Virus record (IMG/VR): IMGVR_UViG_3300021387_000529
Location: 90,811-154,810 of that record
Origin: a virus
Taxonomy: Duplodnaviria > Heunggongvirae > Uroviricota > Caudoviricetes
Length of the DNA stretch: 64,000 nucleotides
Strand: one strand, 5' to 3'
Shown: positions 8,335 to 22,349 of the stretch, one piece after another
How positions within the stretch are numbered: position 1 is the first letter of the stretch
Layout of the letters: every line of letters starts with the position of its first letter
Program-made: the position numbers and the translations under genes
Notes under the pieces: model-generated
Told to the model about the DNA's origin: nothing
The model's database searches: none
Seen by the model: the letters and a program-made list of their open reading frames with translations, nothing else

Positions 8335-8659
8335 TTGGGGAGATATTCTAAACGAAAAAGAAGAGCATGAAAAGCTTCTTGCAGATTGCGAAAAAGCTGT
8401 TAGAAATGAGCCTGAACTTGAACACGATATGGTTGTGCGAAAGACTTGGGCAGAATATGCAAAAGACATCAACAGAATGCGTGCTCAACTTCGTTACATG
8501 AAAAAGTCTGTTGGCTACCGTGGTGGTTGTTATTCACCATATGAAAATCAAAGAGACATCATTGACTGCGAAAAAGAAATCAAACGGCTGTGCAAACTTC
8601 GAGACACTGCTAAAGCGATGGAAAAAGCATCTGGCAATAAAATGGGAGAGATGAAATAA
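8324..8659 (+). CDS. Hypothetical protein
   Basis: GGAG RBS before ATG 8324. Confidence 0.6.
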   Translation: MDIDWGDILNEKEEHEKLLADCEKAVRNEPELEHDMVVRKTWAEYAKDINRMRAQLRYMKKSVGYRGGCYSPYENQRDIIDCEKEIKRLCKLRDTAKAMEKASGNKMGEMK

Positions 8660-8826
8660 TGAAATTTCCATTCAAAATCAGCACAAAGAAAAAGGAAGAT
8701 TGCAGTAAGCTTTTACTCTCAACGTTCAGCTTTATCGCAAATTCTTCTAGTGACGGTAAGCCACAAGAAGTTTCATTAGACATTGATGGAATGCCAAAAA
8801 CTTTTACTGTAAGAATAGTAAAATAA
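8659..8826 (+). CDS. Small hypothetical protein (55 aa, MKFPFKIS...)
   Basis: TAATG coupling, ends just before a terminator. Confidence 0.5.
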   Translation: MKFPFKISTKKKEDCSKLLLSTFSFIANSSSDGKPQEVSLDIDGMPKTFTVRIVK

Positions 8827-8830
8827 AAAA

Positions 8831-8851
8831 ATGGGAGCTTCAAGCTCCCAT
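8831..8851. terminator. Bidirectional terminator
   Basis: ATGGGAGCTT-C-AAGCTCCCAT between convergent genes. Confidence 0.75.
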
Positions 8852-8858
8852 AACTTTT

Positions 8859-9149
8859 TTACCATCTTTTTGTTTTTTGCAATAGGACAAAGAAATAGTC
8901 TAAACCATCTTCTTCTTCCACAGGTTTGAATGTTCCTAAAAGCCGCGATTCAGCAGTTTCTTTAAGCTGTCTTACAAGCTCATCAGAATACTTAATTTTC
9001 CTGTCTTCAGAATAATTGCTTGCAACATCCTTTGCAACTTTCAAGAGAACTTCTTCATTTTTAAGGTCTTTACGAGCAGCAACAATCACAACAGCAATGT
9101 TACCAACTTCATTAAAGAATTTGAATTTAAATAAATTAAACTCATTCAT
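8859..9149 (-). CDS. Hypothetical protein
   Basis: AAGGAG RBS, 96 aa. Confidence 0.65.
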   Translation of the reverse strand: MNEFNLFKFKFFNEVGNIAVVIVAARKDLKNEEVLLKVAKDVASNYSEDRKIKYSDELVRQLKETAESRLLGTFKPVEEEDGLDYFFVLLQKTKRW

Positions 9150-9203
9150 AGGCTGTTCTCCTTATCTATAAAAATAGATTAACACAATCAATATATTAGT
9201 AAA

Positions 9204-9227
9204 AAAGGGGACCAAACGGTCCCCTTT
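9204..9227 (-). terminator. Terminator downstream of flagellin
   Basis: AAAGGGGACC-N4-GGTCCCCTTT with T-run on the minus strand. Confidence 0.75.
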
Positions 9228-9279
9228 GACAATTTTTAATTTAAGCTATCTGATAGAAACCCACCCTCGAAACTATCAG

Positions 9280-10131
9280 CTACCGAAGTAAGGCCAAAAC
9301 ATTCTGTGACTGTGAGTTTGCATTTGCAAGCATTGCAGTTGCAGACTGCTGCAAAATCTGGTTTTTAGTGTATTCAACCATTGATTTTGCCATATCTTCA
9401 TCACGAATGATAGACTCAGAAGATGTAATATTTTCGGCTGCGACATCAATTCCTTTCTTAGCTGTTTCCATTCTGTTTTGTACAGCACCTAAATCAGCAC
9501 GTTGTTTGTTTACAGCTTTCAATGCTTCATCAATTGTTGCAATTGTTGAATTAGCTTCGTCTGCAGACGCAATTGAAATTGTGTTTCCTTCTTCGCCCTG
9601 AATACCAGTTAAACCAAGAGCTGAAGCAGTTGCTGATGCTACATTGATTGAAATATTCTGGTCAACATTTGCACCAATCTGGAAACTCATTGCAATACCA
9701 CCTTCTTTTGCAAAGCGGCCTGTAAGCATGTTCATACCATTGAATTGAGCTGAAGAAGCAATACGGTCAACTTCTGAAACAAGCTGTGATACTTCTACTT
9801 GAATCTGCATTCTGTCTTCATCTGTATACAAACCATTTGCTGACTGAACAGCAAGCTCACGAATACGCTGAAGAATATCACCAGTTTCTGCAAGATAACC
9901 TTCTGTTGTCTGAATAAATGAAACACCATTTTGCACATTTCTTGAAGCCTGATTAAGACCACGAATTTGTGAACGCATCTTTTCCGAAATGGCAAGACCC
10001 GCAGCATCATCACCAGCTTTATTGATTTTCTGTCCTGATGAAAGTTTTTCCATTGATGACTGAAGAGCATTTGTGTTCAAGTTTTCCATTCTTGAAGCGA
10101 AAATGCTGCTCATATTATGATTGATAATCAT
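9280..10131 (-). CDS. flaB: Flagellin, spirochete FlaB-type filament core protein
   Basis: [77 protein letters not shown]; 283 aa. Confidence 0.97.
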
Positions 10132-10178
10132 TAAATCCTTCCTTGGAATTTTTCTGACTTTCCATTGTCTATATTATA

Positions 10179-10206
10179 TTATCGGCATAATTTAGCATAA
10201 AGTTTA
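10179..10206 (-). promoter_or_regulatory. sigma28 (FliA) promoter of flaB
   Basis: Minus strand TAAA-N16-GCCGATAA. Confidence 0.8.
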
Positions 10207-10213
10207 ATGTTTT

Positions 10214-10378
10214 TTAAACTAATAAATCAATTTTACTTTGTGCCTCTTCTTGTGGAGTTTGGATGTTTTCGATAGCCTCAGTTGCGCGTTCTTCTGTACG
10301 TTCTTTTATAGCTTCCTGAGGCTTTCCTTCTAACTGTGAAGCCAAAGATTGTGGCTTTACAATAGCTGAAACTTCCAT
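10214..10378 (-). CDS. Small protein (54 aa, MEVSAIVK...KIDLLV)
   Basis: GAGGT RBS; open frame below the ORF-track cutoff. Confidence 0.55.
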   Translation of the reverse strand: MEVSAIVKPQSLASQLEGKPQEAIKERTEERATEAIENIQTPQEEAQSKIDLLV

Positions 10379-10403
10379 AAGCAATACCTCTAAATAAGAT
10401 TAA

Positions 10404-11024
10404 TTACATTCCAAATTTATCCAAAATTCTTTTTCCAAGATAATAAAGGAAATCACTATCGAGCCTTGACTTAAAGAGAGCATTAACAATTGTCTTTGCC
10501 ATTGTAGCATAAGCGCCATCTTGCTCAACTTCATTAAAAATACTAGTAAGATTTTTGCGAAGCTCATTCAATCGTTCTGTAGAGCAATTTCCTTCATTCA
10601 AAGTAGACTCATGCAATGGTGAGTTAAAAATATCATCAACAAGAGCCTCACCTTTTTTAGTAAGCTTATAGCTGTTTCTTTCGCTCATCGTTGTGTCAAG
10701 AAGGTCTGTTTTCTTCAATGCTGTAAAGAAATTGCTAAAATAGTTTGGTGGCAAACCAATGCCATCAAGAATTTCTCTACGTGTGCATCCTGGATGCTCA
10801 GCAATAAATTTCAAAGCTTTTGCGCCACGCATGTTTGGTTTCATGTTTGTAAAGTGGTATGCTTGTGTGGCCCAAGCTCCACCTAATGCAAGTTTACTAT
10901 CATTCGCACGAGAAAAATTTTTTGGATGTCCAATAGACTTTACTTTTCCATATTTTGCAACTGTTCCCCATTGTGTATAACCAACATTGTGATGTTCATC
11001 ATCATATAACTGTTCAGGTGTCAT
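10404..11024 (-). CDS. Hypothetical protein with winged-HTH-like segment
   Basis: LKFIAEHPGCTRREIL...YKLTKKGEAL; AGGAG RBS. Confidence 0.6.
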   Translation of the reverse strand: MTPEQLYDDEHHNVGYTQWGTVAKYGKVKSIGHPKNFSRANDSKLALGGAWATQAYHFTNMKPNMRGAKALKFIAEHPGCTRREILDGIGLPPNYFSNFFTALKKTDLLDTTMSERNSYKLTKKGEALVDDIFNSPLHESTLNEGNCSTERLNELRKNLTSIFNEVEQDGAYATMAKTIVNALFKSRLDSDFLYYLGKRILDKFGM

Positions 11025-13003: not shown

Positions 13004-13813
13004 ATGTTAGTTCCAAATAGTTTTTTTAGCTCAGACTTAGCGCAAAAGTATTTTATGACAAATAATATGATTGCGCTCAAAATTACAAATGAATGCCCTT
13101 TAGCATGCGCACACTGTCGTGAAAATGCATCTATGGACAATAAAGGCGTTGTCTCAAAAGAAGTTATTGACACAGTCATAAAACAAATTGTTGATGGTGG
13201 CGATGCTGATAAATGGGTTGTTTGTTTACAAGGTGGTGACCCATTATTATATCCAGACATTTGTGAGTATGTAGTTAAAGAATGTCAAAAACATAACATT
13301 GCAACAAATGTTTATACATCTGGTTGGTGGTGGAAAGAACATAAAAAATATGTGCCAATGATTTTAAATTGGAAGCCAACAATTGTTACAATTTCTGTGA
13401 ATGATTGGACAATTGAAAAGAATAACTGCGGTTTACAATATGTTGATACGATTGCAGAATATTTTCAAAGTAATGACACACCTATTTTGTTATATTCAGA
13501 GGTAAATTTAGACGGCGCAAAGTGGGGCCAACAATGTAAGTATAAAACATGCACAATTGCATATGAACTTGCAAAAGTTGGTCGTGCAAAAAATCTCGTT
13601 GGAACATATAAAGCACAAGGTAAAATAGAACGATGGATGGATACGTCTATTTGTGTATTAAGTGGTTTTGAAATAGGGATTGATGGAACAATATATCCAA
13701 ATTGTTGTGCAGCTTCTGGTGGCCCATGCAGATTTGGAAATGTTCTAAATGGCGACAATGTTTCAAAATTACGTGAGATAAACAGACATTCTAAAAAATG
13801 TAATATCTCATAA
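13004..13813 (+). CDS. Radical SAM protein
   Basis: TNECPLACAHC, QGGDP, TSGWW, C-terminal Cys cluster. Confidence 0.88.
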   Translation: MLVPNSFFSSDLAQKYFMTNNMIALKITNECPLACAHCRENASMDNKGVVSKEVIDTVIKQIVDGGDADKWVVCLQGGDPLLYPDICEYVVKECQKHNIATNVYTSGWWWKEHKKYVPMILNWKPTIVTISVNDWTIEKNNCGLQYVDTIAEYFQSNDTPILLYSEVNLDGAKWGQQCKYKTCTIAYELAKVGRAKNLVGTYKAQGKIERWMDTSICVLSGFEIGIDGTIYPNCCAASGGPCRFGNVLNGDNVSKLREINRHSKKCNIS

Positions 13814-14734
13814 ATATAAGTCTGAATAGTCTAAATTAGAACAACTAAAATGCTTACTTGGAGCATATTGAAATTTTTTCACACCAGGTGGCAATTTGTC
13901 ATCACTGCAACAGTTGAAGTCTGGATGTTCATCACACCACCACTCATTTGGAAAAACGTGAAAATATTCAAAGTTTTTTCCACAAGTAGTCAAATCATAA
14001 TTTTTGTCAAATACTGACGCAAAATTACAACTTATTTTTGAGTCATGACAACAATCAAATCCAATATCTCCATTTGGTTTTATAGAACATGCTACTTTGT
14101 GGCAACTTCCATAGTTAATTCTTTCTACATTTTTATCTTTATCATAGTCTGCTCTTCCCATTTCAAGAATTCCATCTTCATGAACTCTTAAATTTGGATA
14201 TAGACTTTTTAGTCTTTCAACTTTCGGATTTCCAATGAAAGAGCATGGAACAATATGTGTGTCATTTTGGAATTCATCTATGATTGGAATTATGTCCCTA
14301 TCTACATCATTATCATGGTAATTATCAACTGATAAGAAAATTAAATATGGCTTTACATTTTCATGTATACGTTTTCTTATCTCAGGGTTTGAGCCCCACC
14401 AACCATTTGAAAAAAGACTGACATCAAAATTTAATTCATGAACTTTTTTCGCCAAATATTCACATTTATCTAATTCAAGTGTTGGCTCACCTCCATATAG
14501 ACAAACAACAGGTTTTATTTTAGTCTTCTTAAAATCTTTAAGTTTTTCGACAAATGCGTCAATTACTTTATAAGAAATATTCCAACTATCATCACATGTG
14601 TGTTGAGCAGAATATGAACAAATTGAACATGAATAATTGCATCTGATTGTCATTAAAACATAGAAACCATAGCCTTTAATTGAACGTGCAAAATGGTATC
14701 TATAAGCTTCCTGATTTTCTTCATAAGAAAACAT
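13808..14734 (-). CDS. Radical SAM protein
   Basis: TIRCNYSCSIC, YGGEP, SNGWWG, LSVDNYH. Confidence 0.88.
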   Translation of the reverse strand: MFSYEENQEAYRYHFARSIKGYGFYVLMTIRCNYSCSICSYSAQHTCDDSWNISYKVIDAFVEKLKDFKKTKIKPVVCLYGGEPTLELDKCEYLAKKVHELNFDVSLFSNGWWGSNPEIRKRIHENVKPYLIFLSVDNYHDNDVDRDIIPIIDEFQNDTHIVPCSFIGNPKVERLKSLYPNLRVHEDGILEMGRADYDKDKNVERINYGSCHKVACSIKPNGDIGFDCCHDSKISCNFASVFDKNYDLTTCGKNFEYFHVFPNEWWCDEHPDFNCCSDDKLPPGVKKFQYAPSKHFSCSNLDYSDLYL

Positions 14735-14757
14735 ATAAAATTAGTAACTAAATCAAT

Positions 14758-15654
14758 ATGATTAAATTTGACTTCAATGACTTGGCTGACCTTGCGATGA
14801 ATGACTATAATAGACTTACATTTGAAATTATTATCACAAAAAAGTGCAATAGTAATTGTCCTCATTGCTTTATGGAAGGAAGCCAAGATGGAGTTATTAC
14901 AAAAGATATAATTGATATTGCTCTTGAAAAATGTAAAAAATTGAAAGATGATAATTGGATTGAGTTATTCGGTGGTGAGCCTATGCTTGAGCCAGAACTA
15001 TGTGCGTATACTTCTCAAAAAGCACATGAGCTTGGATTGAAAGTTTCATTATACACAAATGGATATTGGGGCAATTCACAGAAATTGATGGAATATGTTT
15101 GTAATGAAATAAAACCAGACTTTATTTTGATGTCAATAGATGACTTCCATACAATTCCAGACAGTTCTATAATGAGTATCTTAGAATTTTTTAATAATGG
15201 CAATACACCAAAAATTGGAATTTCTGCAGTAAAAGACCATTGCTCTAAATTAGAGACAAAATTTTTGCCAGCTTTTCCAGACTTAAATGTGTATTATATA
15301 CGTCTTCATGAAGTTGGAAAAAGCGTAAAATATGAGAATAATGAAAAAGACTATTGTAGAATAGAAGGTTGGATTATTTGCCCAGACGGAGATGTCAGAA
15401 TGGCATGTGAAAAAGGATATAAAGCATGCCGAGCTGGAAATATAAAAACATTAGATATTGTTAAGGCATATGATACTATAAAAGACATGTTTTTAGCATT
15501 TATGAGTGGCACACATTTATATGATTTTTGTAATAAAAATACAATAAATATTTTTGACAAGTCAACATTGTTAAGAAAAGACATTAAAATAATGTCATTA
15601 GCAGAAATAACTGCAAAAAAGTCGAATCTTAGAAAAGCTGTACTTACTGATTAA
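14758..15654 (+). CDS. Radical SAM protein
   Basis: TKKCNSNCPHC, FGGEP, TNGYWG, MSIDDFH. Confidence 0.88.
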   Translation: MIKFDFNDLADLAMNDYNRLTFEIIITKKCNSNCPHCFMEGSQDGVITKDIIDIALEKCKKLKDDNWIELFGGEPMLEPELCAYTSQKAHELGLKVSLYTNGYWGNSQKLMEYVCNEIKPDFILMSIDDFHTIPDSSIMSILEFFNNGNTPKIGISAVKDHCSKLETKFLPAFPDLNVYYIRLHEVGKSVKYENNEKDYCRIEGWIICPDGDVRMACEKGYKACRAGNIKTLDIVKAYDTIKDMFLAFMSGTHLYDFCNKNTINIFDKSTLLRKDIKIMSLAEITAKKSNLRKAVLTD

Positions 15655-21548: not shown

Positions 21549-22349
21549 ATGAATTACAGACACATCTATATGTGTATAATTACACATGCAAAGACTTCTA
21601 ATCGTAAACGTGGTGATGGGAATTATTATGAAAAACATCACATCCTTCCAAGAAGTTTATTTCCAAATTGGATAACAAAAGAATCAAATACAGTCTTATT
21701 AACAGCTAGAGAGCATTTCTTCTGCCATCAACTTTTAACTAAAATTTATCCTTCATTTGAAATGGAAAAGGCTCTAAGCATATTTTGTAAATTTAAACAA
21801 GATAAAAGAGCTTTGACTTCAAGACAATATGAAATTTGTAGAAAAGCTGCACATAGAGCAAATTTATTATGGTGGTCTGATGACTCAAACAGAGAACGAA
21901 TGAGAAAAAATTTACATGAAGCTCTGAAAACTAGAAAAATTGTTTTTAGTGAAAAAACCAAGCAACAAATGAGTGAAAGAAGCTCCAAGAGTCGTTGGTA
22001 TAATAATGGAGAACGAGAAACTTTTTCAGTTAAATGTCCTGATGGGTTTATTCCAGGTAGATTAAAACTAACGAAAGAACAAAAACAGCATAAATTAGAA
22101 GCTCTAAGAAAAAACAGAGCAAATAGAACTGAAGAAGAAAAACAGTTGGAATTTGAAAGACGATCTTTAGCTAATAAAAAGCGGCCTAAAAAACAAAAGA
22201 AAAATATTAATATAAGAAAATATACACTTGACGAATGGAATAATATACAGAAAAAGGCTAAGCTAACAGCTTTTGAAACTGGAAAGTCTTATTCAGAGTG
22301 TATTAATTTAATTAAAAAGGAGGTATGCCCATGTCGAAAATATGTATAA
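21549..22349 (+). CDS. HNH homing endonuclease (free-standing)
   Basis: YYEKHHILPRS...NTVLLTAREHFFCHQLL; WYNNG..GFIPGR tail. Confidence 0.88.
   Translation: MNYRHIYMCIITHAKTSNRKRGDGNYYEKHHILPRSLFPNWITKESNTVLLTAREHFFCHQLLTKIYPSFEMEKALSIFCKFKQDKRALTSRQYEICRKAAHRANLLWWSDDSNRERMRKNLHEALKTRKIVFSEKTKQQMSERSSKSRWYNNGERETFSVKCPDGFIPGRLKLTKEQKQHKLEALRKNRANRTEEEKQLEFERRSLANKKRPKKQKKNINIRKYTLDEWNNIQKKAKLTAFETGKSYSECINLIKKEVCPCRKYV

Follow-up and report, generated by a model that had tools for sequence, protein, structure and literature searches.

Phage-borne flagellin is not new in principle. The closest published case to the one analysed here is FRphi, a temperate siphovirus found as an Enterobacter prophage, whose own FliC-P replaces the host flagellin with the help of the RNA-guided repressor TldR, a nuclease-dead TnpB that silences host fliC; the swap changes filament architecture, motility, immune recognition and gut colonisation (PMC13418256). 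On the spirochaete side, the mapped Treponema denticola promoter PflaB2 has the -35 element TTAA and the -10 element CCGATAA and is bound by FliA (TDE2683), and in the same species fliW and csrA are clustered, and CsrA sites lie close to the ribosome sites of both flaB1 and flaB2 (PMC9481697). Searching the literature on jumbo or huge phages with flagellin and on Treponema phages with flagella, we found no description of a case like the following. In a 64,000-nucleotide (nt) stretch of viral DNA (hereafter, the window), positions 90811-154810 of the record IMGVR_UViG_3300021387_000529, a flaB gene encoding a spirochaete core flagellin lies at 9280..10131 on the minus strand. We estimate a probability of roughly 0.55 that this gene makes a working core flagellin in infected Treponema, serving as a filament subunit that maintains or remodels the periplasmic flagella; the phage would thereby probably feed its own subunits into the swimming filament of the infected cell.

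Like FRphi, this phage carries a full-length flagellin isoform. The source record (G000) comprises 300,878 bp with direct terminal repeats and a CheckV completeness of 100%, and it encodes a baseplate wedge protein, NrdD, SbcC and a helicase, so that the preliminary description of the window, which was made from the letters alone and called the flagellin phage-encoded, was right on this point. In contrast to the temperate FRphi, no tyrosine integrase was found in the 301-kb genome, serine recombinases not having been searched, and no match to the TnpB/TldR-type domain PF07282 was detected in the genome or among the neighbours of flaB. Furthermore, the filament concerned is periplasmic, sheathed and shape-giving, the phage cargo comprises both core and sheath genes, and host sigma28 and CsrA-type signals appear to control the flagellin. 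A further difference, from T. denticola, is that the record holds a single flagellin gene instead of three paralogues.

The 283-amino-acid (aa) product is a D0/D1-only core flagellin of the spirochaete FlaB type. It matches Flagellin_N (PF00669, 3.4e-41) and Flagellin_C (PF00700, 8.4e-24) with only a short D1 insert between them, as well as PHROG 16088 (2.6e-56). The nearest solved chains are T. denticola FlaB3 (10PP/9PIL, 353 bits), FlaB1 (10PL, 345 bits) and a third chain of 286 aa (9PIM), as assigned in PMC13439194, and the alignments run end to end, with E values of 1e-105 to 1e-102 for FlaB3 and FlaB1. The phage protein therefore is a full-length FlaB, as had been claimed for it, and shares the two-domain architecture (about 285 aa, no D2/D3) and the length of the T. 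denticola FlaB1, FlaB2 and FlaB3 proteins (TDE1477, TDE1004 and TDE1475; chains 10PL, 10PP and 9PIM). The N-terminus MIINHNMS is conserved, and a signal peptide is absent.

To compare residues, we used a key drawn from the T. denticola structures (PMC13439194) and from work on FliW (PMC12327847), with FlaB1 numbering, and applied it to the 127-member phage lineage delineated below. The longitudinal contacts Q88, R91, E92, D106 and E225 are invariant or nearly so across all members, as is one of the three lateral contacts (R223). Of the eight filament-core contact residues (Q88, R91, E92, D106, R223, E225, R244 and N277), the window protein keeps six; R244 is replaced by isoleucine, and the N277 position is glutamine, likewise in most host sequences. 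Three of five O-glycosylation sites (S115, S126 and T137) are also invariant or nearly so, whereas the phage protein differs from FlaB1 by serine at T171 and alanine at S152; FlaB3 is likewise without a glycan at S152 (PMC13439194). The FlaA contact D162 is retained with almost no exception, and the FliW-binding asparagine (N237 of T. pallidum; PMC12327847) with none. The D1 loop is short, as in FlaB3, the isoform of unsheathed filaments, and the loop with N147 of FlaB1 is absent. Plotted along the protein, conservation in the lineage follows the host FlaB profile. In contrast, a subclade of 76 members that includes the window gene departs from the Treponema proteins at a few defined positions: M172A in 76/76, Y220V in 75/76, R244I/V in 76/76 and T171S in 69/76. 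M172, Y220, R244 (or lysine) and T171 are retained in the 247 host sequences and in the 51 phage sequences that branch more basally. This pattern looks like functional divergence after acquisition, not decay.

We placed the gene in a 374-sequence FastTree phylogeny and in a reduced IQ-TREE set, with 247 sequences serving for the host comparison. The window flaB, all viral-contig copies and 118 database proteins formed a 127-leaf clade (support 0.996, stem 0.113) containing no locus from a named Treponema genome. The reduced tree recovered this clade with a Shimodaira-Hasegawa-like approximate likelihood ratio (SH-aLRT) of 81.4, and the 31 phage-lineage rows still stood together in an interim best IQ-TREE tree that carries no support values. 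The closest database proteins were 98-75% identical, many of them on contigs of 290-335 kb, whereas the best matches in 185,579 species genomes were Treponema FlaB proteins at 65-73%, apart from one exception on a 306-kb contig. That contig, locus L006 (JAZNWZ010000130.1, 306,108 bp), is binned in a 'Candidatus Fimenecus' metagenome-assembled genome, carries a phage-lineage flaB, a FlaA-like gene and homologues of other genes of this phage, and is most likely the complete genome of a jumbo phage that was binned in error. Flanking DNA is available for ten members (the window, L002/L087, L003, L004, L006, L093, L120, L128, G001 and G002), and in all of them flaB lies among homologues of further genes of this phage; these flanking homologues are 27-62% identical, and the flagellins of the same loci 68-85%. 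With the phage helicase as the only query, a scan of viral contigs gave no relatives; a three-sequence alignment of another shared protein retrieved two further ones. A metagenome scan for flagellin loci yielded, among the matches listed, mostly host-type ones.

The phage copies have been kept under purifying selection: pairwise ratios of nonsynonymous to synonymous substitution (dN/dS) were 0.10-0.20 where dS was not saturated. Moreover, the GC content at third codon positions (GC3) of flaB is 0.257, compared with 0.281 +/- 0.059 for the phage open reading frames (ORFs) and 0.48 for host flaB. Two Logan contigs cross both flanks of the gene, one from another sample (3,678 nt, spanning 8600-10900 with 19 differences) and one from a different study (24.8 kb, spanning 8600-10763 with 60 differences). 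The preliminary description had named dN/dS, phylogeny, occurrence in related phages and coverage of the junctions as the places where its account could be checked. The outcome is that the gene is constrained, belongs to a separate lineage, recurs among phage genes wherever context is known, and is joined to its flanks in independent assemblies. The two outcomes that it had set against itself can be dismissed. A chimeric assembly is ruled out by the independent spanning contigs, the terminal repeats and the relatives with flaB among phage genes; a recent neutral capture absent from relatives is ruled out by dN/dS, by the phage-like GC3 and by the 127-member lineage. We also considered the locus L005 (IMGVR_UViG_3300010049_000872) as a phage copy and rejected it: the identity is 60%, the record is of the 'provirus' class, and its flagellin groups with hosts. 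Its leader hairpin displays AGGA, and its provirus borders probably include host DNA.

Upstream of flaB lies a sigma28 (FliA)-type promoter, TAAA-N16-GCCGATAA, at 10179..10206 on the minus strand (TAAA at 10206-10203, GCCGATAA at 10186-10179), which is placed 48 nt before the ATG and exactly matches the class III form of TAAA, 15-16 nt and GCCGATAA. This element, which the preliminary description had picked out, is the sole such motif in the genome, with one occurrence in 300,878 bp against 0.28 expected over both strands; the bare octamer occurs three times. Its form and spacing are those of the TAAA-N16-GCCGATAW promoters of rumen and gut Treponema flaB loci; within the sister clade, TAAAGT-N14-GCCGATAW was present in 51/117 loci, clustered 150-165 nt before the ATG. 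The phage element also resembles PflaB2 in its position upstream of flaB, its -35 (TAAA versus TTAA) and its -10, (G)CCGATAA (PMC9481697), but is followed by a leader of only about 40 nt, compared with 124 nt in T. denticola and about 155 nt in rumen loci. No sigma-70-family gene was found in the phage genome, so that host FliA would have to read this promoter. The gene also has its own intrinsic terminator, as had been described, at 9201..9224 on the minus strand (GGGGACC-GTTT-GGTCCCC + T6, a 7-bp G+C stem), 55 nt after the stop codon; the hairpin was also scored in the plus orientation.

An additional point, absent from the preliminary description, is possible read-through from an upstream phage unit. 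This unit is preceded by the phage motif ACTAATT, and a search of the minus strand from 10214 to 10131 gave no terminator-like site; transcripts could thus continue into flaB, which may not depend on FliA alone. The preliminary description had proposed that the gene is wired into the host flagellar regulon. Its transcriptional part is well supported by the unique host-like sigma28 motif and the lack of a phage sigma factor, as far as motifs and gene content can tell, whereas the CsrA part is only plausible.

The evidence on that second part is mixed. Assuming a transcription start about 7 nt beyond the -10 element, the leader would cover about 40 nt (10132..10172, minus strand), with AAGGAAGGA at 10144-10136 covering the ribosome-binding site. 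It holds GGA motifs at 10163-10161 (within ATGGA), 10142-10140 and 10138-10136, the first two 21 nt apart, and thus presents at least two GGA motifs, one overlapping the Shine-Dalgarno sequence; the two GGA-containing motifs that had been reported are indeed there. The TGGAA/TTCCA hairpin described along with them did not survive: the 55-nt leader folds no better than shuffled sequences (minimum free energy -4.6 kcal/mol, z = -0.35), the pairing is absent from the minimum-energy fold, and no significant hairpin displays a GGA. By a rough estimate, one extra GGA in a 28-nt A-rich stretch is unremarkable. A block, GACAATGGAAAGTC...AAAAATT(C/T)CAAGGA, is common to this leader and that of the phage locus L004, and since synonymous sites between the two flaB genes are near saturation (proportion of synonymous differences, pS, 0.72), its retention speaks for constraint on the leader.

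The relatives offer clearer signals. In the phage loci L002, L003, L128 and L093, a GGA is displayed in the loop of a strong hairpin (z -2.6 to -5.2), and the L002 and L003 hairpins differ by one compensatory G-C to A-U change. Host flaB leaders likewise form a hairpin, whose loop contains AAGGA, ahead of a ribosome site rich in GGA. In the Treponema loci L007-L085, the first flaB of a tandem pair has a leader of about 155 nt with a conserved GATGTAGCCTTGTAA between the sigma28 promoter and the AAGGA-displaying hairpin, and the second flaB has another leader, with GGGGCGCA and a CATGGAGG ribosome site. Given the GGA hairpins in relatives and hosts and the block shared with L004, CsrA-type control is likely for flaB of the phage lineage, and plausible for the window gene, as read from these leaders. 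Compared with the CsrA-FliW-flagellin switch of Bacillus subtilis hag and Borrelia burgdorferi flaB, the phage gene has GGA motifs both ahead of the ribosome site and across it, and encodes the FliW-binding asparagine (PMC12327847), but its upstream GGA is not in a significant hairpin, and the phage brings the flagellin with neither FliW nor CsrA. FliW, CsrA and FliS genes were not found in the phage genome, and FliW was present in 6/6 Treponema genomes tested; with no sigma factor of its own either, the phage would need the host factors.

Flagellin is linked to a second filament gene in this phage group. The plus strand at G000:C1:48082-48915 (L178:283-1116) encodes a FlaA-like protein of 277 aa, which scores 33.4 bits on PF04620 (cut-off 25) and has a Sec-type N-terminus. 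Its gene is 52 kb away from flaB and is preceded by an ACTAATT motif and an ORF for a secreted nuclease-like protein. In L002, L087, L003, L006, L120, G001 and G002, the FlaA-like homologue directly follows flaB. No Maf-type flagellin glycosyltransferase was found in the phage genome.

Homing endonucleases have also made use of the locus. An HNH endonuclease gene, of the family represented in the window at 21549-22349, abuts flaB in L006 (L006:2286-2978), L128 (L128:8886-9500), L120 (L120:2393-4402), and G001 and G002 (the loci concerned including L185, G001:C1:84000-86300, and L186); in G001 and G002 it lies directly upstream of flaB. In L120, a 75-codon 5' remnant of one flaB allele is followed by the endonuclease gene and then by a complete flaB of another type. 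The flaB of G001 and G002 is a mosaic, of L120 type over the first ~60 codons and ~99% L003-type from codon 81, with a breakpoint near codons 60-80; over 498 nt comprising the upstream DNA and the flaB 5' end, identity to L120 is 91%. This arrangement suggests homing into flaB, accompanied by co-conversion, at a site near codon 75, by which flaB alleles would be exchanged among these phages. In the phage studied here, no endonuclease gene stands next to flaB.

From these observations, we propose the following course of events. Host RNA polymerase with FliA would most likely start at TAAA-N16-GCCGATAA, with upstream read-through also possible, and translation would probably come under the host CsrA-FliW-flagellin feedback. 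Because it lacks a signal peptide and keeps the flagellin N-terminus, phage FlaB would leave through the host flagellar type III export gate; it may then polymerise at the tips of the periplasmic flagella alongside host FlaB proteins and be coated by the Sec-exported phage FlaA-like protein. The filament would thus be kept up or changed in stiffness, supercoiling or sheath coupling, with effects on the motility or shape of the infected cell. A CsrA-repressible leader fits a secreted subunit under homeostatic control.

Several points weigh against this proposal. The expression timing, export and incorporation of phage FlaB are argued from sequence. Filaments grow only at the tip, so that the benefit within one lytic cycle is unclear, and no tyrosine integrase was found. 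The subclade that includes the window gene has lost the lateral-contact residue R244 and changed Y220 and M172, all nearly invariant in the 247 host sequences, which means that the protein could disturb the filament instead of supporting it. The leader of this phage lacks a significant hairpin of its own, and promoters vary among relatives: that of L002 looks sigma70-like in its upstream sequence, and in L006, L120, G001 and G002 a homing-endonuclease gene is directly upstream of flaB. Genomic context is known for 10/127 lineage members. Support from RNA is weak, consisting of a few contigs of low depth whose source libraries may contain DNA; one of them (run X17) covers 9862-10145 with 9 differences. 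Such contigs cannot show transcription starts, and uncovered stretches say nothing about silence; most of the short pieces from these runs (36-47 nt, 90-95% alike) came from conserved parts of other flagellins and were set aside.

How phage FlaB might act without building a filament has to be weighed against these data. The preliminary description had offered titration of FliW/CsrA as an option: cytoplasmic phage FlaB would bind FliW (and FliS), free CsrA and shut down translation of host flagellin and possibly of other CsrA targets, so that the phage would save resources or rewire host translation and filament entry would not be needed. The invariant FliW-binding asparagine agrees with such a role, as does the finding that cytoplasmic FlaB build-up in B. 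burgdorferi sequesters FliW, releases CsrA and blocks FlaB synthesis (PMC12327847); the phage itself has no FliW, CsrA or FliS, and host genomes do carry FliW. A decoy needs only its chaperone-binding surfaces, however, yet the polymerisation contacts, glycosylation sites and FlaA contact are conserved with a host-like profile, and the linked Sec-exported FlaA-like gene would be left unexplained. Moreover, the phage mRNA has GGA motifs at its own ribosome site, displayed in a hairpin in relatives, and freed CsrA would silence the decoy too. We therefore regard such a regulatory role as unlikely. Less probable again is a poison or capping subunit, one that enters the filament and destabilises or stops it, so that cells are immobilised or reshaped, perhaps keeping infected cells within a dense host population. 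The substitutions fixed or nearly so in the subclade (R244I/V 76/76, Y220V 75/76, M172A 76/76) against near-invariance in 247 hosts are what such a subunit might look like, R244 being a named lateral contact of FlaB1 (PMC13439194). Against this, the host residues persist in the 51 more basal members, where flaA nonetheless accompanies flaB (L120), which means that the derived state is unneeded for retention, and all other contacts are intact. Bacillus-type flagellins (Hag) have valine at the Y220 position, which also counts against it.

Neither of two explanations that deny the gene a function for the phage fares better. Were flaB a selfish or neutral passenger, captured recently from a host or carried by a homing endonuclease without benefit to the phage, the HNH genes abutting flaB in L006, L128, L120, G001 and G002 and the mosaic alleles there would be accounted for. 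The dN/dS of 0.10-0.20 across a deep divergence with saturated dS speaks otherwise, as do the GC3 adjusted to phage level, a monophyletic lineage on phage DNA only, and the lack of an endonuclease gene beside flaB in this phage. Homing endonucleases typically sit in conserved, useful genes, a further reason to consider this explanation improbable. An artefact, with a piece of Treponema chromosome mis-assembled into a viral contig or a record that is host DNA, has next to no chance of being correct: no evidence for it was found, although the 'provirus' record L005 does carry a host-type flagellin, and the spanning contigs of 3,678 nt (19 differences) and 24.8 kb (60 differences), the terminal repeats, the complete record and the relatives with flaB among phage genes all stand against it. 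Alteration of the filament fits the data better than titration of FliW/CsrA, at least as the sequences allow it to be judged; we prefer this reading because phage FlaB retains both its whole assembly surface and its glycosylation sites, and because a gene for a secreted FlaA-like protein accompanies flaB. A more ambitious form of it is speculative: that the matched FlaB/FlaA pair of these ~300-kb Treponema phages rebuilds the endoflagellum and so controls how the infected cell is shaped and swims, for instance dispersing it or giving very large capsids the space that such a thin cell would otherwise lack. This idea would lean on the divergence from the host pair and on the fixed changes at or near the core lateral interface (R244I/V, Y220V, M172A). 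In spirochaetes, the endoflagellum doubles as a cytoskeleton.

The genes around flaB are accessory in character, encoding an ADP-ribosylglycohydrolase, a ligase-type Zn-finger/HhH/BRCT protein, a ClpP-like protease, an SLT transglycosylase and three radical SAM proteins. The radical SAM genes are consecutive, on alternating strands, at 13004-15654 of the window, 3 kb from flaB; nothing was found to connect them with flagellin modification. The upstream unit is preceded by the ACTAATT motif at 11055-11049 and consists of a gene for a 206-aa winged-helix-like protein at 10404-11024 with a weak MarR-type PHROG match (2.8e-4) and of the small acidic ORF, ending in KIDLLV, that had been noted upstream of flaB; all three are on the minus strand. 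The small ORF is present at 10214..10378 (54 aa, or 56 aa if it starts at the TTG at 10384), its stop lying 8 nt before the -35 element; it matched no Pfam or PHROG family, and related loci have no homologue of it beside flaB. ACTAATT occurs at 62 sites in the whole record, a few bases before many start codons, with an ATG within 25 nt at 40/62 sites versus 42% for shuffled 7-mers. Genes headed by this motif include that for the baseplate wedge protein, several giant ORFs, the pair of nuclease-like ORF and flaA, and the unit ahead of flaB; it is probably a class of phage promoter. Beyond the flaB terminator, a 96-aa ORF (8859..9149, minus strand) forms a separate unit with its own terminator at 8831-8851, and family searches gave no match for it. 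Contigs from RNA libraries match this ORF at 8868-9076 (0 differences, X19) and 8936-9107 (1 difference, X17). The libraries matching 8868-9107 were made from gut samples of cattle and sheep, in which this phage, or one almost identical to it, appears to be present and is possibly active.

Flagellin-replacing phages have so far been documented for one family of enterobacterial prophages and not for spirochaetes. The setting here is a large and apparently non-temperate phage, a periplasmic flagellum, a cargo of core and sheath, and apparent use of the host sigma factor and feedback. The finding gives a firm host assignment, Treponema, to a group of uncultured rumen and gut jumbo phages, and it presents flaB as a conserved phage gene exploited by homing endonucleases. 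If the phage isoform enters the filament, it would serve as a natural experiment on the way in which contacts between core subunits, and between core and sheath, determine the curvature of the endoflagellum, and the changes at R244, Y220 and M172 point to residues worth testing.

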